A DNA stretch of 36,360 bases from an archaeon (GTDB lineage Archaea > Nanobdellota > Nanobdellia > Woesearchaeales > UBA9642): the NCBI GenBank assembly GCA_043806035.1, contig JAZDHK010000042.1, positions 1-36,360 of the forward strand. Reading direction: 5' to 3'. Position 1 is the stretch's first letter, and each line of letters opens with the position of its first letter. The translations under genes and the position numbers were made by a program. This document shows positions 12,611 to 36,360 of this stretch, in pieces. The notes under the pieces are model-generated. The model worked only from the letters and a program-made list of their open reading frames with translations. It had not been told where the DNA came from and did not search any database.

Positions 12611-12645
12611 ATTCCTGTGGTTTAAGATGCGTAATTGCGTATTGA

Positions 12646-22600: not shown

Positions 22601-23770
22601 GAGAGTTGTTCCGATGGCATTGATAATGACTGTGATGGATTTATTGATTGTGAGGACAGCGACTGTTCTGGCTCTGCAGACTGCTATTATGCATTCACCA
22701 CTTCTACACTGACAACTGGAAGAATCCAATTCCCGGGAACACAGACGGGCATTGCTTCAGCAAATGCTCTCTGCCAGTACGAAGCGAACTTATCTTCAAC
22801 AACAAGAGGCAAGGCGTTCGTTGCCTGGATAAGCACATCCGGTGCTGCAGGACCTGTGCAGAACGCCAGAAGTGTCATCGCCAACACCTCGTATTTCTTG
22901 GTGAACAGGACAAGGATTGCAAACAATACAGAAGACTTGACAGATGGCACTATTGCAACAACCATCAACCTCAACTCCTCAGGGGAAAGTCAGACAGGCA
23001 CATCGTATGTGCGGACGGGAACGAACAGGTCTGGCCAAGTGACATCAGGATACACGTGTGTTGATTGGACAGATAACACCTCGGCTTCAGGAGAGGCAGG
23101 GATACGCATTTCTTCAGGCTACCAATGGACTGAATTCACCACTCGCCCATGCTCTGAACTGCAACGACTATACTGCTTCCAAATTGCATGTGATGCTGAT
23201 GGCGTCGAAGATGGCGGCCAATGCGCTGACGGCATTGACAATGACTGTGATGGCCTGATTGACTGCCAGGACACTGCCAACTGCAACGGCGCAGGCAACT
23301 GCAACGAACGCTTGGCAGTGAACGGCTGCGCGAACAACATCGATGATGACAACGACGGGTATGCGGACTGCGTTGATTATGATTGTTTCTTTAGTCCTTC
23401 AGCAACGACTTGTGTGAATTCATCAGTTAGTGGGCAGGGTCAGAACGCGGTTCCGGGAACTAATTATTACTGTTCCAACGTCACCGCGAACGGTTCTGCA
23501 CAGGTAGGGCATTGTTGCCAGGTGAATAACGCGTGGAATGTGAGTGCGAATCAATGCACGCAGACTCAAGGTTGTTATACCTTCTCCGGGCCTTGTAAAA
23601 TTGAACCCAATAATCCTTTCAACCCAGCATCATCTCTCTATTGGTTTCAGATTCCAGACATCAGCGGATTTTGTATTGCTCCTGCTGGTCCTCCGTATTC
23701 GTTAGCGTGTACTCCTGTGTATTGGTTTGGGAATTGGTCGTACCAGTACACGCCAGTTGTCGTCGTCTAG
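19694..23770 (+). CDS. Large Cys-rich secreted protein with five DUF1554/endostatin-like domains and Asp/Cys-rich (DNDCDG) linkers
   Basis: Signal peptide; five repeats of FVS...A[DN]xxCxxEA...AxLS...[VI]W[ST]G...CxxW...YCx[QE], separated by ExCxxGxD[DN]xCDGxxDCxDxxC motifs. Confidence 0.88.
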   Translation: MRMVSWWKTFLLVLFAFSLLPAVHANVMGCNCVLGQNLYNGFNAECFNANPDAPYCQFRGAYQSVYSCDYPITGGNCIFYPDWHMYICNDYFPYYCDIVQIPCGTCVGTSCEYTCPIVRSCADGNTIRITHQHTGEECGQCVSGYVEDIDCAPGSYCSGGTCVAGSPVSCPQPGDCLMMFVSNMKTRGNISEPGYAMGLDSADAICQGDAEAAGLPGEWIAFLSSSTRNIASLLGDATYKTVAGNNIADSKADLLDGDINTAIQGPWGNEYYSYYGNDVWSGTTYQGMNTGYNCQNWNNGLYSASGTEGYVSFAGEGGGWWVNLGESGCDYLLPLYCVQVCPDNDGDGEHSELCGGDDCNDDNPAINPAVSEQCGNDIDDDCDGLTDCVDDDCWGDRVYCKWVFLSTDTSLTGSLSGMALADQVCQNEANAAGIGISNNRQYVAWLSKSGVNAKDRIPDAEYILRDGTLIAYNKSDLIDGSIRNPLMKNATGAARSDTVWTGTVSSGVGTGGSDCTSWTSGGSTVSAYRGSSTSTSGSWTYAGTSYCNNQNAVYCFETGSCSAEVCTGGLDEDCDGQSDCADTDCCLNTACKDDLNCRMVFVSNATTMGFMITDDVSKGILLGTSAANAICTSEANAVGGIMANRAWKAYLSTSSGAPSVSGNKFIRPDNVIVSTSNTNFRTGTHAAPISKNAAGQTVTGDVWTGTTSSGTASAYRCTEWFGISQGLYGQSSASDAYWTQYSSSPYNCINTKHVYCVQTACGGSEICGNGIDDNCDGSTDCEDVSCCNTAYCSRSRQCRIAFVTSTQTTGLIQEPGYASGVASANAICQREAKAAGSLIQGYRAFGAYLVNVSQHPGISLNLQTRRYVRVDGSIITTNDIPWRNTANSINVAIQRRADNTALSTTVWTGMRSGNIVSSNPCSNWKNTSGNTYYGTSSSSTANVWGSSASASACSGAKSLYCVQLECTSSESCSDGIDNDCDGFIDCEDSDCSGSADCYYAFTTSTLTTGRIQFPGTQTGIASANALCQYEANLSSTTRGKAFVAWISTSGAAGPVQNARSVIANTSYFLVNRTRIANNTEDLTDGTIATTINLNSSGESQTGTSYVRTGTNRSGQVTSGYTCVDWTDNTSASGEAGIRISSGYQWTEFTTRPCSELQRLYCFQIACDADGVEDGGQCADGIDNDCDGLIDCQDTANCNGAGNCNERLAVNGCANNIDDDNDGYADCVDYDCFFSPSATTCVNSSVSGQGQNAVPGTNYYCSNVTANGSAQVGHCCQVNNAWNVSANQCTQTQGCYTFSGPCKIEPNNPFNPASSLYWFQIPDISGFCIAPAGPPYSLACTPVYWFGNWSYQYTPVVVV

Positions 23771-23858
23771 GCTGCTGTGAGCGTGGGGATTTGTTGGCGT
23801 TCGGTCATTTTTTCTCGCATCGAAATATTTAAATAGTTATGATTGCTAGTTGGTTCAC

Positions 23859-24404
23859 ATGAACGTATTTACAATCAATGGGTGTTATGAGATTATCTTG
23901 TTGCTCCTCAAAAGGCCGATGCATGGGCGCGGTCTGGCGGACTATCTGAGACTCCCGCTCACGACCGTGCAGAACAGACTGCATGTGCTCACGCGCGAAG
24001 GGGTCGTAGACTATCACACTGAAGGAAAAAATAAGATATTCGCGCTGAAAAAGAACCCTGTGGCGAAAGCGAACATCATCATGGCAGAGCAGTATAAACT
24101 ATTAAAACTGTATCATTCCTATCCTGAACTCCAAGTAATCCTTGATGAAGTGGCGAAACAGTTCAAAGGCATGACTATCCTATTCGGGAGCTACGCAAAA
24201 TTCCTCGCGAAGAAAGACAGCGATATTGACCTGTATATTGCATCAAATGAAAGAAAAGTAAAAGAGCGCGTCCAGCAGGTCAATAGCAGGTTAAGCGTGC
24301 AGATGGGGATGTTGTCAAAAACAGATGCCCTTTCCCAAGAGATTCTACAGGATCACGTCATCGTAAGCGGGGTGGAGGAGTACTATGCAGCATTTCCTCA
24401 CTAA
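23859..24404 (+). CDS. HTH + minimal nucleotidyltransferase (MNT) antitoxin
   Basis: N-terminal HTH (HGRGLADYLRLPLTTVQNRL); LFGSYAK...DSDIDL; TTTAAATA ~25 nt upstream. Confidence 0.88.
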   Translation: MNVFTINGCYEIILLLLKRPMHGRGLADYLRLPLTTVQNRLHVLTREGVVDYHTEGKNKIFALKKNPVAKANIIMAEQYKLLKLYHSYPELQVILDEVAKQFKGMTILFGSYAKFLAKKDSDIDLYIASNERKVKERVQQVNSRLSVQMGMLSKTDALSQEILQDHVIVSGVEEYYAAFPH

Positions 24405-24867
24405 ACTGAAAACGGAAGGAAAACTCGAGCTAGTGGAGCCGTCGAAGAACATAAGCGAGGCGTATGGCGCAAAAGCGAATGATTGCCTTCGTGCAGCAAA
24501 AGTCCTGCATGATGCGAGACTCTATGAGAACTCGATAGCGCAGAGCTACTATGCGATGTACAATGCCATCCAATCTTGCCTGTTCAGAACGGGTATAAAA
24601 TGCGAAAACCACACTGCGGCCATATTCTTGATACGCTATCTTTTCGAGAAGCCCTTGCTTGAGAAAAAAATTCTTGCAGCGAAGAAAGAACGGATTGACA
24701 GACAATACTATGTGACTGGAGAGCAGAATGAGCCGGTGACTAAGGAAAGTTCTCTTATGATGATTAAGGATGCAGAATCAAGTCTCATAGAACTACAGCT
24801 CTTGCAACAACGCCTCTTTGAGAAGGATATCAAACTGATGAGGGCTAAAATCAGCATGCTTACCTGA
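24385..24867 (+). CDS. HEPN-domain protein
   Basis: SYYAMYNA, CENH, ERIDRQYY; overlaps the MNT gene. Confidence 0.88.
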   Translation: MQHFLTKLKTEGKLELVEPSKNISEAYGAKANDCLRAAKVLHDARLYENSIAQSYYAMYNAIQSCLFRTGIKCENHTAAIFLIRYLFEKPLLEKKILAAKKERIDRQYYVTGEQNEPVTKESSLMMIKDAESSLIELQLLQQRLFEKDIKLMRAKISMLT

Positions 24868-24897
24868 ATCGGAAGCACATGCGCATATCTTGTTATG

Positions 24898-24965
24898 CTC
24901 GCCTGCACACAGGTATCTGGTTCGGCAATTGGACATATCAGTACATGCCTGTTGTCGTCGTCTAG
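24898..24965 (+). repeat. Displaced copy of the 3' tip of 19694..23770
   Basis: LACTQV(fs)WFGNWTYQYMPVVVV* versus LACTPVYWFGNWSYQYTPVVVV* (23702-23770); last 15 bp identical. Confidence 0.9.
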
Positions 24966-25048
24966 CGCGCCGTGATTCTTCTGCTTGTTTCGGATGGAAC
25001 ACTGGGACAGGTACGCGCATGATTTATGCCACTTTTGTTCCTCTGCGT

Positions 25049-25091
25049 GATGCGCTGATTGTCTTTCAGGACAAGAAAAGTGTGGCATCGC
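25049..25091 (+). pseudogene. Tiny Bro-N gene remnant
   Basis: DALIVFQDKK followed out of frame by VWHR, versus TALVVFQDKKIRRVWHK of the Bro copy starting at 31773. Confidence 0.6.
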
Positions 25092-25209
25092 GTGTGAGCG
25101 CGGGCACGATTTGTACGTACCTTTCCGTGACTGCGATACGCACTGAGCACGTGTAACGACGTAAAAACCGAAAAACTTATATAAATAAATGATATTATAG
25201 TATCATAAG

Positions 25210-26067
25210 ATGGAAAATTTAATAAACGCATCTGTGCTGGTGCGAAACGAACCGCTGCTCAGGGAGAGACTGTTTACGGACATCCAGTTCGCAATCCTCA
25301 AGAAACGACTGGGACACAAACCCTTGAACAGCACAGAGCGTACGTACTACTACAAATTCATCAAACCAAAGATAAAAGCGATGATGGCCTTCTTCAACAT
25401 CACCGACCTGAACATCCAAGGAGAGGAACATATCGTGCAAGGCAGAAAGGAAGAAGCAATAACAATACTCAAGAGGCTGGAAAAGAAACACAAGAACAAG
25501 AAGATACTGATTTCGGGGTCGTTCCTCTTCAACAAGGAATATGCTGATATCGATGCGTTCGTCATCACCACGTATACCAAGGAGGATTACGTCATGGGCA
25601 GGCTGCACGTGACGTTTCTGCCAGAATCCTCGCTAGATTCTCTGTTCTTTCAGTCCATTGCTCAAATTAGCGTGAGCAATTTCATCCATGCACGAATAGC
25701 TGCGCCAAGAATGAAGCTTGAGCATCTGTTGCAGGTGTATGAGCTGCTCATCAATGCCGTGCTGAATACGGAGGAGCACGAGAAGGAATTGCGGGAGTTC
25801 ATTCTGCAAACAGAATATTACTCGCGAGGCGTTGTTCTCAATCCAAAGCAGCTGTACGCGCTCAAGGAAAAACTTGCCCGGAAAAACACGCGTGCATTGG
25901 CCAATACGCTTATTAATGCACTACTCCTCGAGTACACGAACGATGTGGAACGCAAGCTCAAACAGCACATCGCTGATTACAAAAAGCTGCTACGTCAGTA
26001 CAAGACGGCAAAGAACTTGCCTATCTACATCGACACGTATGAACAGGTGATGTCCCTTGCGACCTGA
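25210..26067 (+). CDS. Nucleotidyltransferase-domain protein (putative antitoxin)
   Basis: ISGSFLFNKEYADIDAF (GS-x-DxD); TGATA-N6-TATCA palindrome at 25190-25205. Confidence 0.7.
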   Translation: MENLINASVLVRNEPLLRERLFTDIQFAILKKRLGHKPLNSTERTYYYKFIKPKIKAMMAFFNITDLNIQGEEHIVQGRKEEAITILKRLEKKHKNKKILISGSFLFNKEYADIDAFVITTYTKEDYVMGRLHVTFLPESSLDSLFFQSIAQISVSNFIHARIAAPRMKLEHLLQVYELLINAVLNTEEHEKELREFILQTEYYSRGVVLNPKQLYALKEKLARKNTRALANTLINALLLEYTNDVERKLKQHIADYKKLLRQYKTAKNLPIYIDTYEQVMSLAT

Positions 26068-26374
26068 AGACGCCAAATCCCTTATCAAAAACGTGCTCGG
26101 ATCACCCATCACGTTCGACGGGCATTTTGGCAAGTGTTTTGAGCATCTCAAGGAGACGCAGCAGCAAGAACTCCTTGCCTGGATTCAGGACTGCAAAGCA
26201 CGCAAAACAAATCCTCTACAATCAAAAACGAACAGGGAACTCATAGGATTTGTCCGCAGGATAGGCAGCAACTTGCGGGCCATTCTGACAAAAAAGAAAC
26301 GAGGTTATTTTCTCGTCTTGTTCCTGGACAAACACAAATACTATGAAACAGAGATGCAGAAGCTCGGTTTCTGA
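26057..26374 (+). CDS. Small basic protein, possibly RelE/ParE-like toxin
   Basis: Overlaps upstream gene; RRIGSNLRAIL...FLVLFLDKHKYYE resembles a RelE-fold C-terminus. Confidence 0.5.
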   Translation: MRPEDAKSLIKNVLGSPITFDGHFGKCFEHLKETQQQELLAWIQDCKARKTNPLQSKTNRELIGFVRRIGSNLRAILTKKKRGYFLVLFLDKHKYYETEMQKLGF

Positions 26375-26784
26375 CGGCTCGGGTGTTTTCTTAATCCTGT
26401 ACGATCTCTTGGATGATGTCTTTGATGAGCGCGTCGACCTTGAACCTGCGTATGCGCCGTGTCGCTGTAAAGATGACAGTATGGTATCCTGATACTCTTC
26501 AAGCACGTACATGGATTCTCTGAGTTTCATGAGATCTCCTTGAACGATAGATCAGGGTGTGGTCTGACGATGATTTTCCCTTCACCGTCGACTGGTCCGA
26601 TGCAGGTTGCGTGCAGTTTCCATGCTTTGTTAAGAAAACGTTCTTGCTTATAACTTTTCGAAAGGAAGTCCAGTCACTCCCTGTGCTTTTCTTAAATCTG
26701 TCCGAAAATCTTCCGGAAAATTCTGCGCAAGAATAATGAAGACAATCATGTTGCTACCACAAAATGATTATTGGAGGGAAGAAC

Positions 26785-27066
26785 ATGCAAAGACTGGAAC
26801 AACTGATAAAATACGACCTGATACGACCAAGCCTCGGGCTAGTCATGTATTCGATAACGCCCGAACTGCCTAAATCGTTGACCATTATTGATTTGCCGCA
26901 GTCCCGTCTTCAAGTGCACATCCACGGGAGTGCTGATGATAATTGCCTGTTTGGCAGCGTCAAACCGTATGGGTCTGAAAAAGAGTGCATTCCTTTGGAC
27001 TCGTACCAGTTGGCAATGGCAGACTATTATGCAGATCAGCTTAACTTGAGCAAGATTGATAAATGA
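26785..27066 (+). CDS. Hypothetical protein
   Basis: ORF with GGAGGG SD before ATG 26785. Confidence 0.55.
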   Translation: MQRLEQLIKYDLIRPSLGLVMYSITPELPKSLTIIDLPQSRLQVHIHGSADDNCLFGSVKPYGSEKECIPLDSYQLAMADYYADQLNLSKIDK

Positions 27067-27085
27067 TGGTTGCAAGGATGGCAAT

Positions 27086-27367
27086 ATGAATTTGTCAACT
27101 CTGAAAAAAGAAGTAGTGGACGTTTATGAAGAATATCTCAGCGGCGGGAAAACTCCCGAGTTGTGTCTTCGTGCTCGTGAATTGCATGTCAAGTACTGCA
27201 CTGCTTCGCCGATACTTCCATCCGACATGTTTGCTGCGATAATGCGTCTGATTGATATTGCAGTAGACACGCACGTCCCACCTCCTGACGCGGATGAAGT
27301 GAAACGTATCCTTCACGAATTGCGAACACTATCACCGAACGAGATCTCGCGGAGAGAATGTGCGTGA
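27086..27367 (+). CDS. Hypothetical helical protein
   Basis: ORF follows 26785..27066 after a 19-nt gap. Confidence 0.55.
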   Translation: MNLSTLKKEVVDVYEEYLSGGKTPELCLRARELHVKYCTASPILPSDMFAAIMRLIDIAVDTHVPPPDADEVKRILHELRTLSPNEISRRECA

Positions 27368-27484
27368 TGTAAACAGTCTCATCTTAGAGGGGAAAGAAGC
27401 GCTATCTTTCCTGAACTGCCCTGAAGCGTCAACATATGCGCTTCATACCTCTTCTGAATGGACTGGATTCCTGGACGTATTTGG

Positions 27485-27518
27485 TCTGATATGATACGCC
27501 CTGTCCAGCTCTTCTGCA
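27485..27518 (-). repeat. Displaced 3' tip copy 4 of 31825..34497
   Basis: Core CTGATATGATACGCCCTGTCCA at 27486-27507; reads AEELDRAYHIR. Confidence 0.9.
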
Positions 27519-27567
27519 TGAGCTGGGTTTGTGGCTTCGTTGAGCGGGTGGTTCTCAAAAAGCAGAT

Positions 27568-27622
27568 GTTATGTGATATAACCAGAAGATATAAATACTC
27601 ATTCTTTGTTATTGTAGATAAC
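27568..27622. promoter_or_regulatory. Paired GTTAT-N5-ATAAC palindromes around a TATA-like box
   Basis: 27568-27582 and 27608-27622, immediately before ATG 27623. Confidence 0.75.
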
Positions 27623-27949
27623 ATGAATGAAAAGAACCACGTGTTGATGTTCAAGGCATCTGCGGATACGCTGTTCCGGATGAAGGACTATACGTCAGCA
27701 ACTATACTCTACTTCAAAACGTGGTTCGCGCTGCATGATTACTTGCTCTTGAAGAAGCTCGGCATCACGCCAAAGGATCACGCGGAGCGTTTTCGTCTTC
27801 TTGAACGTGCGTTTCCTGATGAGTATCTCGCGCTCGACAAGGAGTACACGACATATAGAGACACGTATTCTCGCATCATCTCAGCAGAGGATTGCAGAAG
27901 GGTGCGCGAGGTGGTGGTGCATGCCCTTGAACATCACGGCATTGTCTAA
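27623..27949 (+). CDS. HEPN-like protein
   Basis: ATILYFKTWFA, PKDHAERF, YRDTY; overlaps the downstream MNT gene. Confidence 0.7.
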   Translation: MNEKNHVLMFKASADTLFRMKDYTSATILYFKTWFALHDYLLLKKLGITPKDHAERFRLLERAFPDEYLALDKEYTTYRDTYSRIISAEDCRRVREVVVHALEHHGIV

Positions 27950-28514
27950 ACGATGCAGGGCTTTCGTGAAAGAGTATCCTGCCGTGCAGGACATCATTCT
28001 CTACGGGTCCGTGCGCAAAGGGAAGGGCGCGCCTGCAGATACTGATATTCTCTTGCTCTTTGATGGAAGGATAGACAAGGATGTCGAATACGCATTCCGA
28101 AAAGCGGTCGTGGTGCCCAATTTGGCTGTCGTTTCAAAGACGAGTATGGATGACACGTTCCCTGCCCGAGAAGGAATTTTGTTCGAAGGGTATAGTCTGG
28201 TGTATCGGCAGGCAATTTGTTCCAGGTATGGTTTCAGTCCGTTCGGTTTTTTTCTCTATGATACGGGACAGCTCTCCAACACGATGAGGACGCGGTTCTA
28301 TTATGCGCTGAATGGACGATCGAGAGAAGGTGTCGCGAAGCGGCTGCGCATGATGAAGCTTTCGGCAAACGTTCTCGCCGTTCCTCTACCTCATCTGGAG
28401 GAGGCGAAAGCATTTCTCGTAGCATGGAAGTTGCCGTTCGTGTTCGTGCCGATGCTCATTCCAGAACGGCTTGCACGAAAAGACTTGTTAGTTATACCTA
28501 ATAACAAGAAATAA
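27921..28514 (+). CDS. MNT nucleotidyltransferase with extra C-terminal domain
   Basis: IILYGSVRKG...DTDILL; C-terminal YDT...RTRFYYALNGR domain. Confidence 0.8.
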   Translation: MPLNITALSKRCRAFVKEYPAVQDIILYGSVRKGKGAPADTDILLLFDGRIDKDVEYAFRKAVVVPNLAVVSKTSMDDTFPAREGILFEGYSLVYRQAICSRYGFSPFGFFLYDTGQLSNTMRTRFYYALNGRSREGVAKRLRMMKLSANVLAVPLPHLEEAKAFLVAWKLPFVFVPMLIPERLARKDLLVIPNNKK

Positions 28515-28545
28515 TATTTCATCTTTATTTGTTATCAGAAATAAC
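28491..28545. promoter_or_regulatory. Second pair of GTTAT-N5-ATAAC palindromes
   Basis: 28491-28505 and 28531-28545; same 40-bp period as 27568/27608. Confidence 0.75.
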
Positions 28546-28566
28546 ACATGCACTTCTCTGTTCGTC

Positions 28567-28642
28567 TCACTGCCTGATATGATACGCCCTGTCCAATTCT
28601 TCCGCGTCAGACAGGTTGATCGCTTCGTTTGTCGCTTTGATG
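28567..28642 (-). repeat. Displaced 3' tip copy 3 of 31825..34497
   Basis: IKATNEAINLSDAEELDRAYHIRQ*; core at 28574-28595. Confidence 0.95.
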
Positions 28643-28765
28643 CCATGTGTGGCAAAGGTACGATTTTGTCGTACGTTTCTTCTCTCTACAGATAGTCCTT
28701 GGCCACTGGCCAGGTATGCGCATGATTTATAAGCATGAACATCTGCTTTTCTCGGGAGGTTGAAC

Positions 28766-29598
28766 ATGCGTGAGGATACTGCACTGGTCGTCTTCCAGGA
28801 TAAGAGAATAAGGAGAAGGTGGTATAGTGGTGAATGGTTCTATTCAGTGGTTGATATCGTCGGAGTCCTCACCGATAGTCCTACCCCTAGGCAGTATTGG
28901 GGGAAGGTCAAGGACAGAGAATTCATGGCTCTCGAACTGTCCCCAATTTGGGTACAGTTGAAGCTGCCTGCAGAGGATGGAAAACTGAGGTTCACGGATT
29001 GTGTGCATACGAAAAATGCTTTCAGACTCATTCAGTCTATACCCTCAAAGAAAGCCGAACCATTCAAGCAATGGCTGGCACAGCTGGCTCAGGATCGCAT
29101 ACGGGAGATAGAGAATCCCGAGCTTGCGCAAGACCGGATCAAAGAGTATTACGAACTCAAAGGCTATCCGAAAGAATGGATTGACAAGCGCCTGAGAGGA
29201 ATAGCCATCAGACAAGAACTGACGGGTGAGTGGAAAAATAGAGGTGTTGTCGAAGAAAAAGAGTTTGCAATACTCACCAATGAAATCAGCAAAGCAACCT
29301 TTGGAAAAACAGTTGTGAGTACAAAGAATTTAAGCGACTGCAGAAGAAGAACCAGAATTTACGAGACCACATGACCGATTGGGAACTCATCTTGACGATG
29401 GTTGGAGAAAAAGCCACGACCGACATCACTATCGCAAAAGACTCTCGCGGATTAGGTCAGTGCAAGGATTCCGCTCAAGAAGGGGGAAAAATCGCGCACA
29501 ACACGAGAAAGGAACTCGAGCAAAAGATAGGAACCCCCTTGGTCTCCGCAGATAATTTTCTTGGGAAAACACTGCAGAAAAAGAAACGCGCACCTTAA
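28766..29598 (+). pseudogene. Bro-N domain (antirepressor-like) gene with a 1-nt frameshift near 29315
   Basis: FQDKRIRRRW...WFYSVVDIV...IPSKKAEPFKQWLA; after FGKTV the homologous EYK...QNLRDHMTDWEL continues in another frame. Confidence 0.85.
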
Positions 29599-29604
29599 GA
29601 AATA

Positions 29605-29652
29605 CTACTCCCTGATATGATACGCCCTGTCCAGCGCTTCCGCGTTCGGCAA
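29605..29652 (-). repeat. Displaced 3' tip copy 2 of 31825..34497
   Basis: LPNAEALDRAYHIRE*; core at 29612-29633. Confidence 0.95.
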
Positions 29653-29847
29653 ACGTATGATTTTATCCTACGGGTTTCCTCTGTCTGAAAAGGATTTCCT
29701 GAAAATTCGTGGATGTTTGGTGCAAAACGTTATTACTGGGTATGTTGTCAAAGTGACGTTGCAGATGATCGTGTGAAAACAACAGCTAGTGTTCGGGAGA
29801 GAGGTGGAGCCAAAACATTTATAAATATAAGTAATTATTCTTACCCT

Positions 29848-30405
29848 ATGGTAAGATTTTATACCTATTTGGAAATGTTCCTTGATGCGGTGGACAAACA
29901 AGTGAGTCTTGGTGATTTCGAACGCAGGTTCAAGACCCCTCACCAGACGGTACGCAAGCATCTTGAGCGTTTTGTCCGTGCAAAGGTACTTAGGGAAGAA
30001 AGAAGAGGGAGGTTTCTCTTCTACTCGCTGAACAGGGAATTGCCTCTGACTCGAGAGTATCTTGTCCTTTGCGAGAAGGAACGCCTGCTCAGTTTCTTGG
30101 AGAAGAGCCAGCTGTTCTCGAGATTGTATGCTGCGCTTTCAGGATTCTTTCCAGGTGCAACGATTGTCTTGTTTGGCTCTGCGGTGACGCAGAATGAATT
30201 CTCTGACATTGACCTGCTGATACTCTCCGGAAGCAAAGAACTCAGGAAGGCACTGACGAATTTTTCCATGACGTATTCCGTGAAGATACATCCTGTGCAG
30301 ACGACAAAGGAATACTTGACTCCGACATTCATCAAAGAAGTGAGAAAGAAACACGTCATATTCAATAATCACGACAAGGCGATGGTGGTGCTGTATGGGT
30401 ATTGA
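29848..30405 (+). CDS. HTH + MNT antitoxin
   Basis: SLGDFERRFKTPHQTVRKHLE HTH; LFGSAV...SDIDLL; CTTACC-N4-GGTAAG palindrome over the start codon. Confidence 0.85.
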   Translation: MVRFYTYLEMFLDAVDKQVSLGDFERRFKTPHQTVRKHLERFVRAKVLREERRGRFLFYSLNRELPLTREYLVLCEKERLLSFLEKSQLFSRLYAALSGFFPGATIVLFGSAVTQNEFSDIDLLILSGSKELRKALTNFSMTYSVKIHPVQTTKEYLTPTFIKEVRKKHVIFNNHDKAMVVLYGY

Positions 30406-30853
30406 GTGGTGCAAGAAGCAGGGAATGAAGCTTGTCGAACCCAATGATGATCTGGCAGAAGAATACTACTTGAGTGCGGAAGAGACGCTGCGAGTGACGA
30501 ACCTCATCAAGAATTCAGGCTCGAACATGTGGCTGGCTACCCAGAAATACTATGTGGAATACTTGGCAGCATATGCGCTGCTCATGAAGCTAGGTGTCAA
30601 GGCTGAAATCCACTCCTGCACGATTGATATCATCCGCCTCCTTGAGGAAGAAGGCATCATCACTTTCCGCTTTGCCGACCAACTCATTCACGATAAAGAA
30701 CTAAGGATTGACAACCAGTACTATCTCAAGAACAGGCCAGTCGACCTTAATCCCAAGGCGCTTGCCGAACTGCTGTTGCACACGCGCAAGCTGCTCGATA
30801 CCCTGACTGAGAAACAAGTGCAGCATATAAGAAAAAAGATAGCTACTGCCTGA
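30395..30853 (+). CDS. HEPN-domain protein
   Basis: KYYVEY, AEIHSC, LRIDNQYY; homologous to 24385..24867; stop codon lies inside the tip repeat. Confidence 0.85.
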   Translation: MGIEWCKKQGMKLVEPNDDLAEEYYLSAEETLRVTNLIKNSGSNMWLATQKYYVEYLAAYALLMKLGVKAEIHSCTIDIIRLLEEEGIITFRFADQLIHDKELRIDNQYYLKNRPVDLNPKALAELLLHTRKLLDTLTEKQVQHIRKKIATA

Positions 30854-30924
30854 TATGATACGCCCTGTCCAATTCTTCCGCGTTGGGCAGGTTGATCGCT
30901 TCGTTCAATGCTTTGATATTTGCG
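30843..30924 (-). repeat. Displaced 3' tip copy 1 of 31825..34497
   Basis: ANIKALNEAINLPNAEELDRAYHIRQ*; core at 30850-30871. Confidence 0.95.
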
Positions 30925-30933
30925 TGAATTAGT

Positions 30934-31773
30934 TCAGAGTCGCGGGAGCCTCTTTCTTTTCTCCCTTTCAGGCTCTGCCAAATAATTTTCTTCAGAAATG
31001 ATGGTTTTGCCTATTCTTTTTTCAGCGTCCTTTCTTGCGCTTCCTGCGACTTCTCCGCCTGATTTGGCGGCGCGCTTGCAGTCTTTGAACTGCTTTGCGT
31101 CTTTGTTTCTTGTAATCTCTGTTGTTACTCTTTCTCCGAGCATGTTGAAGATGAGTTCAAGGTCAGTCATGTGATCCCTGAGATTCTGCTGTTTCAGGCC
31201 TTTGTGTTTCTTGTACTCCTCGATCGTTTTCCCGAAGGTTGCCTTGCTTATCTCATTGGTGAGGATGGCATATTCCCTGTCTTCTTCAACGCCTCTCTTC
31301 TTCCATTCGTCGGTGAGTTCCTGCCTGACAGCGATGCCTCTGACTCTTTTCTCTATTCAATCATCAGAATACCCTTTTTCCCTGTACAACTCCTTCATTC
31401 TCGCTTGCGCAAGCTCGGGGTTCTGTATTTCCTCAACACGTTCATGGCCGACTCTGGCCAGCCACAACTTAAATGGCTCTGCATTCTTTGAAGGTATTGC
31501 TTGCACTATCCTGAAAAGCACCTCGGTATTGGCGCAGTCAGTGAAGTACTGCTTGCCATCCGAAGAGGGCAGTTTGAGCTGGTTACATTTTGTAACCACC
31601 TCGCTTCCCTCCTTGCCCAGTCTGTGCTTGAGGACTTTCCAATAATTACGGGCATCTTCGCTCCTGCTAAGAGCGCCAACAATGTCAACCACTGAAAACC
31701 ACCAGGCATCTTTGTGCCAGACTCTCCTGATCTTCTTATCTTGGAAGACGACAAGCGCAGTTTCTTTATCCAT
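30934..31773 (-). pseudogene. Bro-N domain gene with in-frame TGA at a conserved Trp (31357-31359)
   Basis: KGYSDD*IEKRVRGIAVRQEL versus KGYPKEWIDKRLRGIAIRQEL; frame stays open to 30934. Confidence 0.85.
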
Positions 31774-31824
31774 GCTACGTCAAGAAAACTTTCTCGCTTA
31801 TAAATTTCTCGCCAAGAAGTCCCG

Positions 31825-34497
31825 TCACTGCCTGATATGATACGCCCTGTCCAGCGCTTCCGCGTCCGGCAGGTTGATCGCTTCGTTCAACGCCTTGATG
31901 TCCGCGCGGGACATGGTGGACCTCTGGCTCTGTTGGTGGAGTACTGTTTCATAGGGTGTGAGTGTTGAGTCTACAGTGCCGACTTCGTTAGGGAATGCAA
32001 GTGCGCTTAAATTTTCTGCAATTATGTGATTTTGTGGCAAGTATTGTACTATTTCCATATATGCTGATTCAAGAATACCGTCGAAATTTCTATCGTACGT
32101 GGCGATGAATGACATGGTTAGTGATTTGTAGCTAGGTAGTAATCCATCGTGGGTTGTTCCGTATCCTTCGATGTAATAGCTGCTGTCCTGCAGTGTCGCT
32201 CTGTGCGAAGTTGGCCTGGCCCAGGGATGGATGATGTTGCTGTTTATTTCGTTGAGGACGAGATTTTCTTGCAGTATTTGTTCTTGGTCAGTCCATTGCA
32301 GGCCATTGTTTGGGTTCGTCTTCCCGATCCACCACGTGTACCCGCCGTTCTCGAAGCCCTGGTTTGCGTTGGAGAAATTTATCTTTGCAAGACCAAACCA
32401 AGATGGATTAGATGGGATTGGCACGTTTCTTGCTTCTGCAATAAATCGCCAATATCTAAATGGAGATATGTTTTGCTCTTGCAGCGCATCATATGTTGAT
32501 ACGAGGATGGTCGTGTCACGATCAGAAGCGGTATTGATGTCTGCGGTTCTTTCGAAGCTCTGCACGTTGTTGTTGAGCGTGTGCACTGCCCTGACGGGAA
32601 TGATGCCGCCTGGCAATACTTGCGTGTGCAGCATATCGCCAAAAAGGTAATCCTGCCCGTTGATAGTAACGATGCCATTGGATAGAGGTTCGAGTGTCTC
32701 GAGGTCGGCGATGCTGATGCGTAAATCCGTCATTGGCAAGACGTTATAGTTGAGCGTTCTGTCTGTGAACGCGCCGTGCGGGTCAGTGACGCGTAAAGAA
32801 ACATTGCCTGGCCCTGAAGCGTCTGGCTGCAGTGCAAAGCGCAGCACGTGATTGTCTAGTGATGCCGTTGCGGGTCCGTTCTGTGACTGTATTGCGAAGG
32901 TGAGCAGGGAGTCGGGTGATTGCGCATCTGATGTGACTGCATCGAGGTCAACGCTTTGCATGCTGCTGTCCTCGTACGCTGTCCTTGTGGGCAGGGTCAT
33001 TTGTGGAGGGGTGTTTCTTGACTGTATGGGCTGTTCGAGGATGATGAGGGAGTCCTTGCCTTGGATGCTCGCGCTGGCAAGGAAGTTGCCGATGTCGTAC
33101 GTTGCGGGAATGAGGATGTTTGCTGGCGTCACCAAACAAAACGAGGTGTCCGGTCCGAAGCCTTTGTTGTAGAGTATGGAGAGGGTGTCTGGTCGTGAGC
33201 TTTGTACTTGGATGTTTGCGTTCGTGACGAGGGGAGCATTCCCTATGTTGGGGGTGACGGTGAGGCTTGCGTTGTACGTAATGGGGGGGATGGTGCTGAC
33301 GTGGAGTGGCTGTTCCTGCGTGATGATGGTGTCTCTCGCGGTGAGGATTGCGCGCAGGAGATATTCTCCGTTCATGTATGTTCTGTTGATGCTGAACGGG
33401 CTCTGCGGATTGTTAATAGTGGTGTCTGTGCCGTCGCTAAAGTCAACGTTCAGCCGTTGGATGAGGGAATCATGGCCTAGTGTTGTGCCGAAGCTGGCGA
33501 GTATGTTTGCAAGTAAGGGTTCTGTGCCTTCAGCAGGGTCAACGAGGAAGTTGAGGTAGTGCTGTGCATTCACTGCCTGCACGGGCTGTGTCAGGATGAT
33601 GCTTGAGTCCTGTCCGACGATGGTTGCTCGTGCAAGGTATTCTCCCCTGCTGCCGTACAGGAGGGGAATGATGGTGAGGCTGTCCGGGTGTACGATGACG
33701 GTGTCAGGGCCTTCTCCTTTGTTGAATCGCAATGATGCAATGAGATTTTGCGGGTAGGCAATGATTCTTGCTTCTGTCTGCAATGGCCAGACCCCTGTTG
33801 AGGGATTGATGTCGAGCGATCCCCTTATTTCTCCAGGCTGAACAATAGGATAGACGTGGATTGGCCTTTGCACGATGATTTCTCTGCTGCACAAGCGGAA
33901 TCTTGCGCGGGCTTGGACGGTATAGTCTCCTGCCGTTGCATACTGGTGAGGGACTTGCAGGGTGAACGTTAATTGATGCTGGGGAACGTTGACTGTAGTG
34001 TCAAGTCCTTCTGTCGTGAGCCGTAGCGTCCTGAAGAATGCTGCGGGAATGACCGTTGCTGAGAGCAGGGCTTCTAGGCCTTCACCCACTGAGTCAGGAG
34101 CGTCTACGCGGAGGAAGAAGCAGCGTGCTCGTGTCGTATCCCTGGCGCGTATGAACAAGTCTCCGTTGAGGTAACCGTCTGCAGTAACCAATGTTGGTCG
34201 GGTCGTGTCCGTGAACTGGTATTCGAGAGTGAAGTCCTCGGTTTCCTGCTCTGGTTTGAGGACGCCGTCAGGCAGTTCCTGATACGTGAGGTTGATGGAG
34301 TCAAGGACTACATTGCCGTCGACGTGCAGGTAGTGTTCGACGGGGATGTCGTAGGGCACTTCGTCTTCGAGGGTGAGCTGCATGTTCACGGTGGGAGTTG
34401 GTTCTTCTGGTTTTGTGGGCGTTTTGTCGCAGCCGATGATGATGCTGCCAGCTACCGCTGTGGCGAGTGCCGTTTTGAGCAGGTTTTTCGCGCGCAT
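31825..34497 (-). CDS. Large lipoprotein-like surface protein with PKD/Ig-like and cadherin-like repeats
   Basis: Signal ending IIIGC; repeated beta-sandwich units (e.g. INPSTGVWPL, VDPAEGTEPL, VTPNIGNAPL); NTPP...EDS...VDLD unit; TTTATAAA 24 nt upstream. Confidence 0.85.
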   Translation of the reverse strand: MRAKNLLKTALATAVAGSIIIGCDKTPTKPEEPTPTVNMQLTLEDEVPYDIPVEHYLHVDGNVVLDSINLTYQELPDGVLKPEQETEDFTLEYQFTDTTRPTLVTADGYLNGDLFIRARDTTRARCFFLRVDAPDSVGEGLEALLSATVIPAAFFRTLRLTTEGLDTTVNVPQHQLTFTLQVPHQYATAGDYTVQARARFRLCSREIIVQRPIHVYPIVQPGEIRGSLDINPSTGVWPLQTEARIIAYPQNLIASLRFNKGEGPDTVIVHPDSLTIIPLLYGSRGEYLARATIVGQDSSIILTQPVQAVNAQHYLNFLVDPAEGTEPLLANILASFGTTLGHDSLIQRLNVDFSDGTDTTINNPQSPFSINRTYMNGEYLLRAILTARDTIITQEQPLHVSTIPPITYNASLTVTPNIGNAPLVTNANIQVQSSRPDTLSILYNKGFGPDTSFCLVTPANILIPATYDIGNFLASASIQGKDSLIILEQPIQSRNTPPQMTLPTRTAYEDSSMQSVDLDAVTSDAQSPDSLLTFAIQSQNGPATASLDNHVLRFALQPDASGPGNVSLRVTDPHGAFTDRTLNYNVLPMTDLRISIADLETLEPLSNGIVTINGQDYLFGDMLHTQVLPGGIIPVRAVHTLNNNVQSFERTADINTASDRDTTILVSTYDALQEQNISPFRYWRFIAEARNVPIPSNPSWFGLAKINFSNANQGFENGGYTWWIGKTNPNNGLQWTDQEQILQENLVLNEINSNIIHPWARPTSHRATLQDSSYYIEGYGTTHDGLLPSYKSLTMSFIATYDRNFDGILESAYMEIVQYLPQNHIIAENLSALAFPNEVGTVDSTLTPYETVLHQQSQRSTMSRADIKALNEAINLPDAEALDRAYHIRQ

Positions 34498-34570
34498 ACT
34501 CAAAATATACACAACTCCTCTTTATAAATTTTGTTATTACTCAATAGTGAATATGTTGTTTGGGGTGGTG

Positions 34571-35185
34571 TTATCGTACGTACACGCGCTGGAAGTCGAT
34601 GACGAGCGCTCCCATGTTCAGCTCTCCTCGCGCCTCGACGTACGCATAGCCTGCAGCAGGGAAGGTGTGCGTTACTCTCGCAATGTACTCTTGCGTTGCG
34701 GGCAGAGCAATCGTCGTATCAAGACCATCTGTTGACAAGCGCAGATTGCTGAATAGCCGTGCAGGACTGATACGTGCTTCAAGCACTGCTGTCCTGTCGA
34801 GCGTGTCAGGCAGCTGCAGGGTAACGTACACTTCTCGTGCTCTCGTCAACACCTCATCAAGGACAACACCGTTTCCGGGAAGATATGCTTCTGCCTTCAC
34901 GTGTGTCACTATGCCCGTATCATAGAATGCGTAATTGTATGAAAGATCCTGCACTTCCTGCTCAGGATACAGGCTATGCACATACTCATTCTGCACGTAC
35001 ATCCTGATGCTGTCAGACACGAGCTCTCCTTCCACATGCACGTTGATGGGAACGTCGATGCCTGCAGGGACTTCTTCCGCAACGCTTACGGCGACATGAG
35101 CATCAATGCCCGGAGATTTCATCACTTTCTCTGAACAGGAAATGATGAGACAGGTGCCAAGGGCAAGGACGAGTGCTGATTTCAC
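34571..35185 (-). CDS. Lipoprotein-like short paralog of the N-terminal part of 31825..34497
   Basis: EEVPAGIDVPINVHVEG...DSI...PEQE...LRLSTDGLDTTI versus DEVPYDIPVEHYLHVDG...DSI...PEQE...LRLTTEGLDTTV; LIISC; GGAGG SD before GTG 35185. Confidence 0.8.
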   Translation of the reverse strand: MKSALVLALGTCLIISCSEKVMKSPGIDAHVAVSVAEEVPAGIDVPINVHVEGELVSDSIRMYVQNEYVHSLYPEQEVQDLSYNYAFYDTGIVTHVKAEAYLPGNGVVLDEVLTRAREVYVTLQLPDTLDRTAVLEARISPARLFSNLRLSTDGLDTTIALPATQEYIARVTHTFPAAGYAYVEARGELNMGALVIDFQRVYVR

Positions 35186-35263
35186 ACATACGCCTCCAGC
35201 AGACCGTGCTGCCACGCCGAAATGAAGCACTAAGTATTTAAATATACTTCGCACGAGCAGGCC

Positions 35264-36220
35264 ATGCTCCTCACCATACTCCTGTTCTGCTTTTCCATGT
35301 TCTGCCTCTATGTCGGCGCTAATTATCTTGTTGACAACAGCGCCTCTCTCGCGAGGAAGCTCGGCATTTCCGCACTCGTGGTTGGGTTGACGTTTGTTGC
35401 CATTGGCACGAGCATCCCTGAATTGTTCATCGGCATTGTCTCAGAGATAAATCACGTTCCCAATCTTAGTCTGGGCAATCTGTTGGGTGCGAGCATAGCC
35501 GTGCTTTCGTTGGTGTTGGGCATTGCCGCCTGCATAGCACCCATCAAGATTCACATCAGCACGTTGCAGAACGAGATTCCCTTCCTCATCTTGGGCATCA
35601 TGCTGGTCTTTCTCCTCAGCATGGATGGTATTCTGGGAGGGCTGGACGGGGTACTCTTGCTCGTCTTTCTCATCGTGTACCTCGCCAACACGTTCATCGT
35701 CTCGAAACAAAACCGTTACGACGACCAAAGAATAGTGGACATTGAACTTACGGAATTGCTCATCATCAGAGGAAAGAAGAACCGCCATTATGTGTTTTTC
35801 ATCCTTGTGGGAGCGATCATCGTTGCTGTTGGCGCGCACTTTATGGTGGAGACGGCGCTCGCCTTCGCGCATGCCCTGCATGTGCCTGAACTGCTCATCG
35901 GCATGACTTTAGTGAGTATAGGCACCACTCTTCCTGAACTCGTTACGGGCATTGTGTCTGCATTGAAGCATCATGAGGATCTCGAGCTGGGGACGTTGTT
36001 AGGGAGTGCCATGTTCAATATGCTCGGCATTCTGGGGATTATCTGCCTGCTTTCTCCCATTGCCGTTCCCCGAACGGTGCTATTCATAGATTTGCCTGTG
36101 CTTTTCGCAATAGCCGTCATCCTCTATCCGTTGATGCGGAGAAATTTTGTCATCCATCGTTATGAGGGAGTCATTCTCATCATACTCTATTGTGTGTACG
36201 TGGCACAGATGGTGTTCTAG
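35264..36220 (+). CDS. Calcium/sodium antiporter (CaCA, YrbG-like)
   Basis: Alpha-repeat motifs GTSIPE and GTTLPE; GNLLGAS and GTLLGSAMFN. Confidence 0.93.
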   Translation: MLLTILLFCFSMFCLYVGANYLVDNSASLARKLGISALVVGLTFVAIGTSIPELFIGIVSEINHVPNLSLGNLLGASIAVLSLVLGIAACIAPIKIHISTLQNEIPFLILGIMLVFLLSMDGILGGLDGVLLLVFLIVYLANTFIVSKQNRYDDQRIVDIELTELLIIRGKKNRHYVFFILVGAIIVAVGAHFMVETALAFAHALHVPELLIGMTLVSIGTTLPELVTGIVSALKHHEDLELGTLLGSAMFNMLGILGIICLLSPIAVPRTVLFIDLPVLFAIAVILYPLMRRNFVIHRYEGVILIILYCVYVAQMVF

Positions 36221-36263
36221 CAGTATCTCCGTAACTGATTAACTTCTCGTGAGTAGTTTTGTG

Positions 36264-36306: not shown

Positions 36307-36360
36307 TGTGGCACGTTCAGTTAAGATTAAGATAGAGACAGAGCTGCACTTGAAACACTT

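Follow-up and report, generated by a model that had tools for sequence, protein, structure and literature searches.

Insertion with long target duplication is a form of gene gain that is reportedly linked to Nobusato et al. 2000. In the bacterial cases described by Furuta, Abe and Kobayashi (2010; PMC2853133), single insertions of restriction-modification (R-M) genes are flanked by near-identical direct repeats of variable length (>30 bp), which duplicate target sequence and often extend across the target's stop site; the target gene is left intact, no transposase or integrase is reported for the insertions presented there, and the mechanism is given as unknown. For Rhs, CdiA and Vibrio cholerae type VI secretion system (T6SS) arrays, Kirchberger et al. 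(2017; PMC5361080) describe homology-facilitated illegitimate recombination, in which serial additions beside a conserved gene part push the old 3' ends downstream and leave orphan ends, with no integrase in the model as described, the arrays then being reshuffled by homologous recombination. What varies in the arrays of that account is the protein's own toxic C-terminus together with its immunity gene; upstream of this variable part, within the open reading frame (ORF), lies the repeat. Integrons and CALINs hold mostly promoterless cassettes in the same orientation; as surveyed by Ghaly et al. (2022; PMC9668308), archaeal ones included, these cassettes measure about 1 kb, are rich in toxin-antitoxin (TA) and defence genes and lie between repeats that are most alike within a genome, and most of the archaeal cases presented have no integrase on the contig. 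Tycheposons, as described by Hackl et al. (2020 preprint, 10.1101/2020.12.28.424599), are elements of several kb at tRNA or tmRNA genes whose active members carry a tyrosine or serine recombinase; newcomers push older elements deeper, and partial target copies, decayed further out, lie between them.

Here we describe a locus on contig JAZDHK010000042.1 of an archaeon of the order Woesearchaeales that shares features with each of these systems. The window, i.e., the whole stretch of DNA analysed, comprises 36,360 nucleotides. DPANN archaea have tiny genomes with few recognisable mobile elements and a widely varying defence and TA content. The locus clearly exemplifies, in an archaeon, a known but poorly understood form of gene acquisition without an integrase, and it details, through about nine modules, two anchors and graded junction decay, how defence and TA genes can build up in this way.

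Architecture of the array

The island is an 8-kb interval between two convergent genes, encoding a surface protein and a DUF1554 protein, and holds about nine modules, most of whose junctions bear a residual copy of the end of a flanking gene (Table 1). Five exact matches to a 22-nt core occur in the window, all on the + strand and all direct repeats of one another, with successive spacings of 1088, 1038, 1238 and 982 nt, in exact agreement with the preliminary description. Allowing up to three mismatches gave no further match in the window (0 of 100 shuffled sequences had any), the remainder of the 1.5-Mb genome (42 contigs) lacks the 22-mer, and neither an nhmmer profile of the five tips nor tblastn with the tip peptide recovered additional tip copies in the genome.

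The fifth core copy had been taken for the true end of the surface-protein gene, and this is correct: the ORF ends ...LDRAYHIRQ*, and three homologues (49-70% identity) end ...AEELDR[AV]YHIR(Q), so the ending is native to the anchor-gene family. Its last ~90 nt constitute the native tip, T5. The lengths of the four displaced tips, T1 to T4, measured like their identities by blastn against the gene end, are 45-76 nt and thus close to the 34-82 bp first proposed. T3 matches T5 exactly over 34 nt, while the upstream part of T1 is only ~62-65% similar to the other tips. The TGA or TAG stops that had been ascribed to the displaced tips are present in T2, T3 and T4, whereas T1 lacks a stop at the usual position.

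Two further duplications extend the array. Beyond T1 lies a sixth junction remnant matching 31769-31829, a stretch made up of the start of the module A Bro-N gene, its putative promoter, the post-core bases with TGA and the final bases of the core; the homology ends within the core, with perhaps 10 nt of tip kept. On the opposite flank, the unrelated 3' end of the DUF1554 gene is itself duplicated, and module I sits between the two copies.

Table 1. Features of the island and its flanking genes, with positions in the window.
Feature	Coordinates	Strand	Description
Facing anchor gene	19694..23770	+	1358-aa DUF1554 protein; native 3' end 23719-23770
Module I	23771..24912	+	Nucleotidyltransferase 23850-24404; HEPN 24385-24867
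Displaced facing-gene 3' end	24913..24965	+	85% over 53 nt; last 15 nt including TAG exact
Third Bro-N cassette-type remnant	24966..25100	+	N-terminal ...ALIVFQDKK fragment
Module G	25210..26374	+	Pair 25210-26067 and 26057-26374; no Pfam match
Sixth junction remnant	26619..26685	-	82% identity over 61 nt to 31769-31829
Module E	26686..27485	+	Overlapping pair 26764-27066 and 27056-27367; no family match
Displaced tip T1	27486..27548	-	Core 27486-27507; blastn 27486-27541, 56 nt, 80%
Module D	27549..28566	+	Small ORF 27623-27949; nucleotidyltransferase 27921-28514
Displaced tip T2	28567..28655	-	Core 28574-28595; blastn 28567-28642, 76 nt, 88%
Module C	28656..29604	+	Bro-N/PDC-S13 gene 28760-29598(+), frameshift near 29316
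Displaced tip T3	29605..29651	-	Core 29612-29633; blastn 29607-29651, 45 nt, 96%
Module B	29652..30853	+	HTH-nucleotidyltransferase 29713-30405 (PDC-M05A-like); HEPN-related partner 30395-30853
Displaced tip T4	30843..30930	-	Core 30850-30871; blastn 30845-30917, 73 nt, 90%
Module A	30872..31831	-	Bro-N/PADLOC PDC-S13 gene 30934-31773(-)
Core copy 5	31832..31853	-	Codons L-D-R-A-Y-H-I-R of the live gene
Surface-protein anchor gene	31825..34512	-	895 aa; signal peptide; lipobox-like ...IIGC; weak Big_9 Ig domain

Modules and cargo

The repeats delimit modules of ~1 kb that lie in either orientation and appear to have been acquired separately, as had been proposed. The cargo consists of Bro-N genes (PADLOC candidate family PDC-S13) and MNT/HEPN-type pairs, and scans against Pfam, NCBIfam and PADLOC found no mobility gene among the module ORFs. 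The Bro-N and HTH-MNT plus HEPN units of the preliminary description are thus present in either orientation, but both Bro-N genes are broken, that of module A by a single TGA (31357-31359), in frame, where Trp is otherwise invariant, and the partner in module D (27623-27949) had no family match in the same scans. In module G, ORF 25210-26067 has one weak PADLOC match (ThsA, E 0.0023).

Modules A and C lie in opposite orientations and are 69-74% alike at the nucleotide level, and modules B and D have opposite gene orders and no nucleotide similarity. Modules occur on both strands and the Bro-N genes, that of module A included, carry TATA-like boxes of their own, which may serve as promoters; in the third Bro-N remnant a promoter-like segment (25005-25027) is 91% identical to 28708-28730. 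The few post-core bases, the stop codon among them, go with the module: the 82% identity of module A to the sixth junction remnant runs from the Bro-N start, past the stop, to the edge of the core, and the partner gene of module B has its stop codon within core copy 4.

Assembly support

If strain variants of one gene end had been falsely joined through a shared 22-27-mer, the array would be an artefact of assembly. We consider this extremely improbable. The evidence comes from short contigs of public runs and is partial: exact contigs span tip 2 (28306-28677, run X1) and, in run X3 from another study, the passage from cassette A through tip 5 into the gene (31721-31871), tip 1 is covered by two contigs (27348-27498 and 27476-27608, run X2), and these were assembled at k greater than the repeat length. 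Each interval also holds different complete genes, and the composition of the island and the anchor gene fits that of the genome. What would speak for an artefact is that the stretch is covered at a depth of 2-6 only in the source runs and that no piece bridges tips 3 and 4 among the matches listed.

Comparison with described systems

The locus shares with insertion with long target duplication the defence-type cargo between variable direct repeats that copy the target (by blastn 45-76 nt for the surface-protein gene and 53 nt for the DUF1554 gene) and the lack of mobility genes in or beside the inserts. It differs from the cases in Furuta et al. in being archaeal, in having five to six insertions stacked behind the surface-protein gene and one more behind the facing gene, in a Bro-N/PDC-S13 and MNT/HEPN-type rather than R-M cargo, and in repeats that are 12-36% diverged save for the invariant 22-nt block. 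As in the arrays of Kirchberger et al., old 3' ends have been left as orphans at a distance from the live gene; in contrast to what is described there, the protein is unchanged, all tips encode the same conserved ending, and the cargo, which has no relation to the anchor gene, is found entirely beyond its stop codon. The preliminary description had recognised no described system in the array; given this match to published insertion with long target duplication and 3'-end displacement, an undescribed kind of system is not supported.

Module size and the TA/defence cargo recall the integrons and CALINs surveyed by Ghaly et al., yet here neither IntI nor an evident attC-like imperfect palindrome was found, the repeat derives from a host gene, and cassettes lie on both strands with putative promoters of their own. 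The partial target copies between modules, decayed further out, recall tycheposons as the preprint presents them, whereas the modules here are of 1 kb, none of the about nine contains a recombinase, and the targets are ends of protein genes.

Conservation of the core and a proposed mechanism

None of the 22 core columns varies among the five copies, compared with 5 of the 12 adjacent columns (Fisher p=0.003) and 30 of the 57 upstream homologous columns (p=3.5e-6), and, given 65% upstream identity between T1 and T5, 22 identical bases would arise with P~8e-5. The identity at wobble positions that was first noted by eye is therefore genuine, and the counts support a conservation of the core in excess of what coding explains. 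The core is not invariant family-wide, as homologues at loci L020 and L019 differ within it.

The sequence type directly upstream of the core alternates from T5 to T2 (GCGC, GAAT, GCGC, GAAT) and the stop codons are TGA, TAG, TAG and TGA, respectively, so that the two sites are reassorted in all four combinations. The upstream-type site abuts the core and the stop site lies 5 nt past it, ~29 nt separating both, and two bases distinguish TGA from TAG. That exchange occurred within these ~29 nt is the simplest reading, although the argument is weakened in that it rests on four tips and that recurrent mutation could undo it. Alternating, reassorting tip types exclude a linear history of one end, and with it the earlier proposal that each newcomer simply pushed the prior tip outward.

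We favour, with a probability of roughly 0.45, homology-dependent stacking of modules behind gene ends with exchange in the core, as opposed to a dedicated integron-like system. The interval between the convergent genes would be a hotspot of gene gain, to which small, self-contained modules, each with its own promoter and made up of a single Bro-N/PDC-S13 gene or of two genes of MNT/HEPN type, would be added one by one, right after the stop of one or the other flanking gene. A short gene-end copy would come along with every module, and exchange would fall in the perfectly identical block beside the stop, which spans 22-27 nt in the surface-protein gene and 15 nt in the DUF1554 gene. The live gene end would thereby stay intact and a second, non-coding tip copy would come to lie on the module's far side. 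In our view, the exchange would be the work of general homology-dependent recombination or repair in the cell, with related strains as the source of the DNA; double crossover between arrays or Campbell-type entry of a circle could be the route, and a recombinase dedicated to the 22-mer is probably not involved. If so, cassettes may be exchanged by way of short gene-end copies that provide portable homology, a suggestion that the identity block and the reassortment make testable.

Several observations weigh against exchange in the core. A stretch of 22-27 nt is short for homologous recombination. The sixth junction remnant keeps only the last core bases, for which variable illegitimate junctions would account no less well, and the variation in tip length is predicted directly by models of pure displacement. 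A pure serial displacement in which the core plays no role is, in our judgement, unlikely: a module would arrive on linear DNA with the gene end of a donor allele, enter by one crossover in the gene and one illegitimate join at a variable point of the resident tip, and leave the displaced tips as former live gene ends, whether by homology-facilitated illegitimate recombination or as an insertion with long target duplication. Such a course is consistent with the in-frame stops and the family-consensus residues of the displaced tips (AEEL in T1, T2 and T4; ATN in T2 as in P0003), and with the last 30 codons being more alike among homologues (86-90% at the nucleotide level) than most of the gene. 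It has also been published, in the cases presented, for T6SS/Rhs arrays (PMC5361080) and R-M genes (PMC2853133). Displacement leaves unexplained, however, why the core shows no change where the upstream part of the tip has diverged by 35%, why tip types alternate and why all four upstream/stop combinations occur, and at least five independent illegitimate joins that leave whole compact genes would be improbable without selection.

That the array arose in place and with no import, tip and module together undergoing tandem duplication and unequal crossing-over and then decaying, is disfavoured and highly improbable. The recurrence of two Bro-N modules and several MNT/HEPN-type pairs is as expected from such a history, but the inversion and divergence of A and C and the dissimilarity of B and D are not, and the tips would need repeated back-and-forth changes at three bases.

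Searches for recombinases and recombination sites

As the preliminary description had stated for the window, no integrase is present: Phage_integrase and Resolvase had no match on the contig, and no integron integrase was found in the 93.7% complete genome (best TIGR02249 match 114.7+66.5 bits in one ORF on contig C20, against a cut-off of 265, the match skipping model positions 176-239). Elsewhere in the genome there are seven tyrosine and one serine recombinase matches, several at contig ends, and no core copy lies beside any recombinase gene. An attC consensus, noted as absent at the outset, was not apparent either when each strand of the five tips was folded as DNA: 8 of 10 folds scored no better than shuffles (z -0.2 to -1.2), the exception being a T1-specific hairpin (z -2.8, -3.6), and Rfam gave no match. 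Around the core, the best dyad within 45 nt (5/7 matches) was equalled by 776 of 1000 shuffles, and the core lacks the Xer/dif-type architecture of two inverted arms round a short spacer (~28 bp).

These results bear on whether a recombinase encoded elsewhere recognises the core, with the gene end corresponding to attI, the tips to attC, and 1-kb circles being captured and excised. It is possible that a trans-acting recombinase is encoded elsewhere in the genome, which is 93.7% complete, or on the missing ~6%. The invariant core with sharp edges, the uniform ~1-kb size of the modules, their occurrence in either orientation and their integron-like defence or TA cargo (cf. the cassettes described in PMC9668308), the recombinase matches and a second, different repeat-delimited cassette array on contig C19 would all suit such a system. 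We nevertheless regard it as quite doubtful, as the core has no copy elsewhere in the genome and neither a dyad nor a conserved hairpin, and as the homologous modules A and C differ in their orientation with respect to the tips, which units inherited with a directional site would not do. Moreover, the pattern is not tied to the 22-mer, for the facing gene's unrelated end is duplicated alike and other gene ends or repeats bracket Bro-N genes in other genomes. Of the integration site proposed at the outset, then, displaced gene ends that mark modules hold up and a dedicated role of the 22-mer is not supported as worded.

Relatives of the anchor gene and recurrence in other genomes

A search for homologues of the anchor gene yielded loci L019 and L020 as its sole relatives. 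Each has a single tip that is not repeated in the 10 kb downstream, and both, at amino acid identities of 55% and 69%, are far removed from the anchor gene, stand in bacterial contexts and lack synteny with the island. Neither an array variant nor a circular form was observed, nor was a vacant site in any closely related strain, and this weighs against homology-dependent stacking. Within the last 30 codons of the homologues, 19 of 28 and 23 of 26 identical residues use identical codons.

The Bro-N gene occurs in 189 of 401 genomes of the order, often in multiple copies and with up to 82% amino acid identity between families, and is highly mobile there. Flanking repeats, which are either intergenic or taken from the ends of other genes, are present at 5 of 19 Bro-N loci of other genomes; the other 14 have none within 1.5 kb, a point against homology-dependent stacking. 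The stop-codon block might be the true recombination site of an unrecognised, integrase-independent DPANN cassette system in which modules land at host gene ends and the tip copies are their portable addresses; its driver would be a trans-acting factor, possibly Bro-N/PDC-S13 itself, a ubiquitous, multi-copy DNA-binding protein that adjoins such junctions in several genomes. We think such a system improbable. The architecture may represent a general, under-described route of gene gain, and the array is suited to testing this. In one genome (G332), a 101-nt, 85% copy of the end of a 157-aa gene brackets an intact 280-aa Bro-N gene at a spacing of 1035, and a genome of the same genus (G038) has a single copy of that gene end. 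In another (G301), a 37-nt repeat brackets a Bro-N gene adjoining an MNT-HEPN pair.

The Core and the End of the Anchor Gene

A search of the window recovered the five exact copies of the 22-bp core reported in the preliminary description, all on the + strand; allowing up to three mismatches added none, and 100 shuffled windows gave no match. These five are the only copies in the genome (42 contigs searched), elsewhere in which a profile of the five tips (copies of the gene's 3′ end) and a peptide search found no weaker tip copies. The exact 22-mer had no match in genome_contigs, metagenome_contigs, or viral_contigs, and when the tip DNA was compared with 400 other genomes of the order, only two matches appeared, of 18–25 nt and at chance level. 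The rightmost copy was confirmed as the last codons of a live ORF, the anchor gene, whose 895-residue product has a signal peptide and a lipobox-like sequence (...IIGC). From 5.8 billion proteins, 8000 candidates were scored against this protein and six matched at E ≤ 0.001; besides the query itself these were three full-length relatives (70, 55, and 49% identity) and two weak Ig-domain matches; no relative was found in viral_contigs. All three full-length relatives end in ...NEAINLP.AEELDR[AV]YHIR(Q) and, judging by them, the tip ending is native to the anchor protein family. The displaced tips match the live end over 73 nt (90%), 45 nt (96%), 76 nt (88%), and 56 nt (80%).

DNA could be read for only two relatives of the anchor gene, both in bacterial contexts, one on a contig of a 3.3-Mb genome (L019, gene 10001–12649) and the other on a metagenome contig (L020, gene 9758–12625). 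L019 has multihaem cytochromes as neighbors and its genome gave no diphthamide synthase match; the neighbors in L020 are RNase E/G, Omp85/POTRA, and a histidine kinase. These contexts, together with identities to the archaeal gene of 55–69% (amino acid) and 60–84% (nucleotide, 3′ half), suggest that the surface protein gene was transferred between domains. The last 30 anchor codons (31825–31914) are 86–90% identical to L019 and L020 in nucleotides, with identical codons at 19 of 28 and 23 of 26 identical residues, and are closer at this level than most 50-codon windows of the gene, even in relatives that have no array. No empty site was found via synteny, as same-family relatives are without the anchor gene and their neighboring exchanger gene has at most 37% identity. 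Just upstream of the anchor gene is a gene for a 227-residue protein, 36% identical to anchor residues 12–216, that is a paralog of the N-terminal part only.

An Island Between Two Convergent Genes

The features of the island are collected in the table below.

Features of the island and its two anchor genes, from left to right (MNT, nucleotidyltransferase; T1–T4, displaced tips).
Feature	Coordinates (strand)	Content	Place
DUF1554 gene	19694-23770 (+)	1358 aa	facing anchor gene
Module I		MNT + HEPN	leftmost module
DUF1554 end copy	24913-24965		
Bro-N(+) stump	~24966-25100		left of G
Module G		gene pair	left of Bro-N(-) stump
Bro-N(-) stump	26619-26685		left of E
Module E		gene pair	next left of D
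Core in T1	27486 (+)		
Module D		small ORF + MNT	next left of C
Core in T2	28574 (+)		
Module C	28760-29598 (+), Bro-N gene	Bro-N(+)	next left of B
Core in T3	29612 (+)		
Module B		HTH-MNT + HEPN-related	next left of A
Core in T4	30850 (+)		
Module A	30934-31773 (-), Bro-N gene	Bro-N(-)	rightmost module
Core in T5	31832 (+)		live gene tip
Anchor gene	31825-34512 (-)	895 aa	
N-terminal paralog	34571-35254 (-)	227 aa	just upstream of anchor gene

The Bro-N(-) stump is 82% identical over 61 nt to 31769–31829, a stretch that runs from the start codon and promoter of the module A Bro-N gene through the post-core bases, with their TGA, into the final bases of the core; the homology ends inside the core. 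Judged from this homology, the region is a sixth junction and retains the stump of a further Bro-N module. For 26686–26720 a full decayed tip was also considered, but only short words could be aligned by eye and nhmmer returned no such tip; the claim is limited to the 61-nt homology. At the other side of the island lies a second copy of the last 53 nt of the DUF1554 gene, 85% identical and exact over its final 15 nt, TAG included; the two end copies flank the nucleotidyltransferase-HEPN pair of module I. In the Bro-N(+) stump are an ...ALIVFQDKK fragment and a promoter-like stretch with 91% identity to its module C counterpart. A genome-wide scan identified 85 local direct repeats, six of which abut the stop codon of an ORF of at least 100 residues; five of these are in the island and the sixth is inside a repetitive gene on contig C5. 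The stop codon of the module B partner gene lies inside the fourth core copy.

It is scarcely credible that the array originated as an assembly artifact. The public-read check of the window comprised Logan contigs only, which were short and of depth 2–6; those listed included neither a core-to-core joint nor a circle junction, though at this depth they have no power to reveal either. Exact public pieces bridge tip 2 (28306–28677, run X1) and the point where module A, tip 5, and the gene meet (31721–31871, run X3, from a different study and habitat label), and two pieces from run X2 cover tip 1; among the public contigs listed, none bridges tips 3 and 4. The island and the anchor gene have tetranucleotide correlations with the genome of 0.80 and 0.71, and are inside its range (random 2.7-kb pieces, mean 0.81, sd 0.12). 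The window, which is the whole of contig C42, also has genes for diphthamide synthesis, a TrmB regulator, ThrRS, and glutamate dehydrogenase, and the genome (1.5 Mb in 42 contigs) is 93.7% complete, genomes of the order ranging from 0.6 to 1.7 Mb.

Reassortment Across the Core

Among the five copies none of the 22 core columns varies, as against 5 of the 12 adjacent nucleotides (p = 0.003) and 30 of the 57 homologous upstream columns (p = 3.5e-6), and upstream of its perfect core T1 is only 62–65% like T2, T4, and T5. Coding constraint does not account for this identity, since each of the two DNA-readable relatives has a difference within the core, a synonymous one in L020 and one affecting the Ala codon in L019. 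Immediately upstream of the core, three bases distinguish a GCGC type (T5 and T3) from a GAAT type (T4 and T2), and the stop codon is either TGA (T5 and T2) or TAG (T4 and T3), such that these four tips hold all four combinations of upstream and stop type. As two base differences separate TGA from TAG, the simplest account is an exchange somewhere in the ~29 nt between the two sites. The alternation likewise excludes a linear history of repeated displacement of a single evolving gene end. A likeness between the core and the Bro-N promoter region (CTGG.CAGG...) was dismissed as chance, as 134–496 of 2000 shuffles were equally good.

Our leading explanation, to which we assign a probability of roughly 0.45, is that the island is a hotspot for the gain of small modules, which enter behind the stop codon of one or the other anchor gene through homology-dependent exchange in the core, using general machinery. 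It is from the reassortment across the core that we infer recombination within it by such machinery. Exchange would occur within a short, perfectly identical block at the end of the gene, each module bringing a tip copy of its own; what lies upstream of the core in a displaced tip, and the few post-core bases, would be properties of the module rather than of the resident gene. Such an arrangement would account for the post-core bases common to module A and the Bro-N(-) stump, for the reassortment of upstream and stop types, and for the persistence of a perfect core in a much diverged tip. The first duplication at a given gene would still need a rarer illegitimate event, as described in print. 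The main rival, pure serial displacement with variable illegitimate joins, fits the variable tip lengths and the 10-nt stump well but leaves the core unaccounted for, and we consider it unlikely. In-place duplication is highly improbable.

Duplicated Gene Ends in Other Genomes

Direct repeats within 1.5 kb were sought around the Bro-N genes of the 19 best loci from other genomes and were present on both sides in five and absent in 14. In one genome (G332) the last 101 nt of a 157-residue protein's gene are repeated 1035 nt downstream at 85% identity, both copies ending at the stop codon and together enclosing an intact, convergent 280-residue Bro-N gene. The ortholog in another genome of the genus (G038; 81% amino acid identity) has a single end, which at the few sites where the copies differ mostly agrees with the gene-attached copy and at three sites with the displaced one; either copy in G332 may be the native end. 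A Bro-N gene of G301, beside an HTH-MNT and HEPN pair, is flanked by a 37-nt repeat that begins 4 nt past a stop codon, and G397 has a Bro-N gene and a membrane protein gene delimited by three intergenic repeats of 130 nt.

A few hundred bases from the G301 Bro-N and MNT-HEPN modules (locus L057), a 106-nt direct repeat (5330–5435 and 6185–6290, 99% identity) is made up of the C-terminal ends of 75- and 272-residue Cys-rich secreted proteins and may be another duplicated gene end.

Relation to Site-Specific and Other Known Systems

The preliminary description was right in its displaced gene ends and in finding no integrase on the contig; its dedicated site-specific system fared less well. The contig has no match to a tyrosine or serine recombinase; seven tyrosine and one serine recombinase matches are on other contigs, none of them adjoining a core copy, and no match to an integron integrase in the genome reached the cut-off. 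Further against such a system, the core has no dyad symmetry, the tips (searched for attC-like or conserved hairpins) fold no better than shuffles except for a T1-specific hairpin, and Rfam gave nothing on 23000–36360 at E up to 1. Although homologous, modules A and C lie in opposite orientations with respect to the tips, and unrelated sequences show the same pattern at the DUF1554 end and in other genomes. We therefore regard a dedicated trans-acting recombinase as quite improbable.

The array has closer parallels. The term "insertion with long target duplication" (Furuta et al. 2010; PMC2853133) refers to defense genes flanked by direct repeats of more than 30 bp, variable in length and often spanning the stop site, without mobility genes and by a mechanism given there as unknown. 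Kirchberger et al. (2017; PMC5361080) attribute arrays of displaced 3′ ends to homology-facilitated illegitimate recombination followed by homologous reshuffling. The array is a variant of these two kinds, from which, as so described, it differs in being archaeal, stacked five to six deep, and fed from both sides, and in its cargo and invariant block. Newcomers push older elements into an island, with partial target copies between, in the account of Hackl et al. (preprint), although the elements described there carry recombinases. The archaeal integrons of Ghaly et al. (2022; PMC9668308) are mostly without an integrase on the contig, are rich in toxin-antitoxin and defense cassettes, and have attC sites.

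The Cargo and the Bro-N Protein

Both Bro-N genes match PDC-S13, a PADLOC candidate defense family (E = 1.8e-63 and 1.6e-76), and the HTH-MNT of module B matches PDC-M05A; the module B partner is 28% identical over 145 residues to the Pfam-positive HEPN of module I. A single change disrupts each of the two Bro-N genes. The module A Bro-N gene has one in-frame TGA, at a Trp invariant in 12 intact homologs. That of module C has a 1-nt frameshift, which an extra A behind 29316 in one of two X1 contigs would restore, and intact and broken forms may coexist. Bro-N/PDC-S13 was present in 189 of 401 genomes of the order, a tally that includes the unpublished genomes G227 and G331, on which no other claim rests. 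It often occurs in several copies (up to seven matches per genome among those listed), many with internal stops, with amino acid identity as high as 82% between families, which is the behavior of a selfish or very mobile gene.

Clues to the function of the protein were few, as Pfam identified only the Bro-N domain and a PDB sequence search nothing. An AlphaFold model of a PDC-S13 homolog (L046:1246–2088, - strand; mean pLDDT 64) has a Bro-N beta/alpha domain and then an all-helical half. Its best Foldseek match was DdrC of Deinococcus, a DNA-break-binding protein, at E = 2e-5 but with TM 0.35–0.47 and rmsd 13–16 Å, and we regard this predicted likeness as a weak lead. DinD of E. coli is probably a Bro-N protein; nothing useful was found in the literature on DinD, Bro-N, and RecA.

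A second cassette array of this genome, at C19:54780–60427 (L021 2780–8431), contains a ~205-nt non-coding repeat, which is not related to the tip, in four full copies, with one further copy on C40:3286–3449. The C19 copies are spaced 2892, 1011, and 1538 nt apart, no recombinase was found on the contig, and HEPN and HTH-MNT pairs and other small genes lie between the copies in an arrangement that may be CALIN-like.
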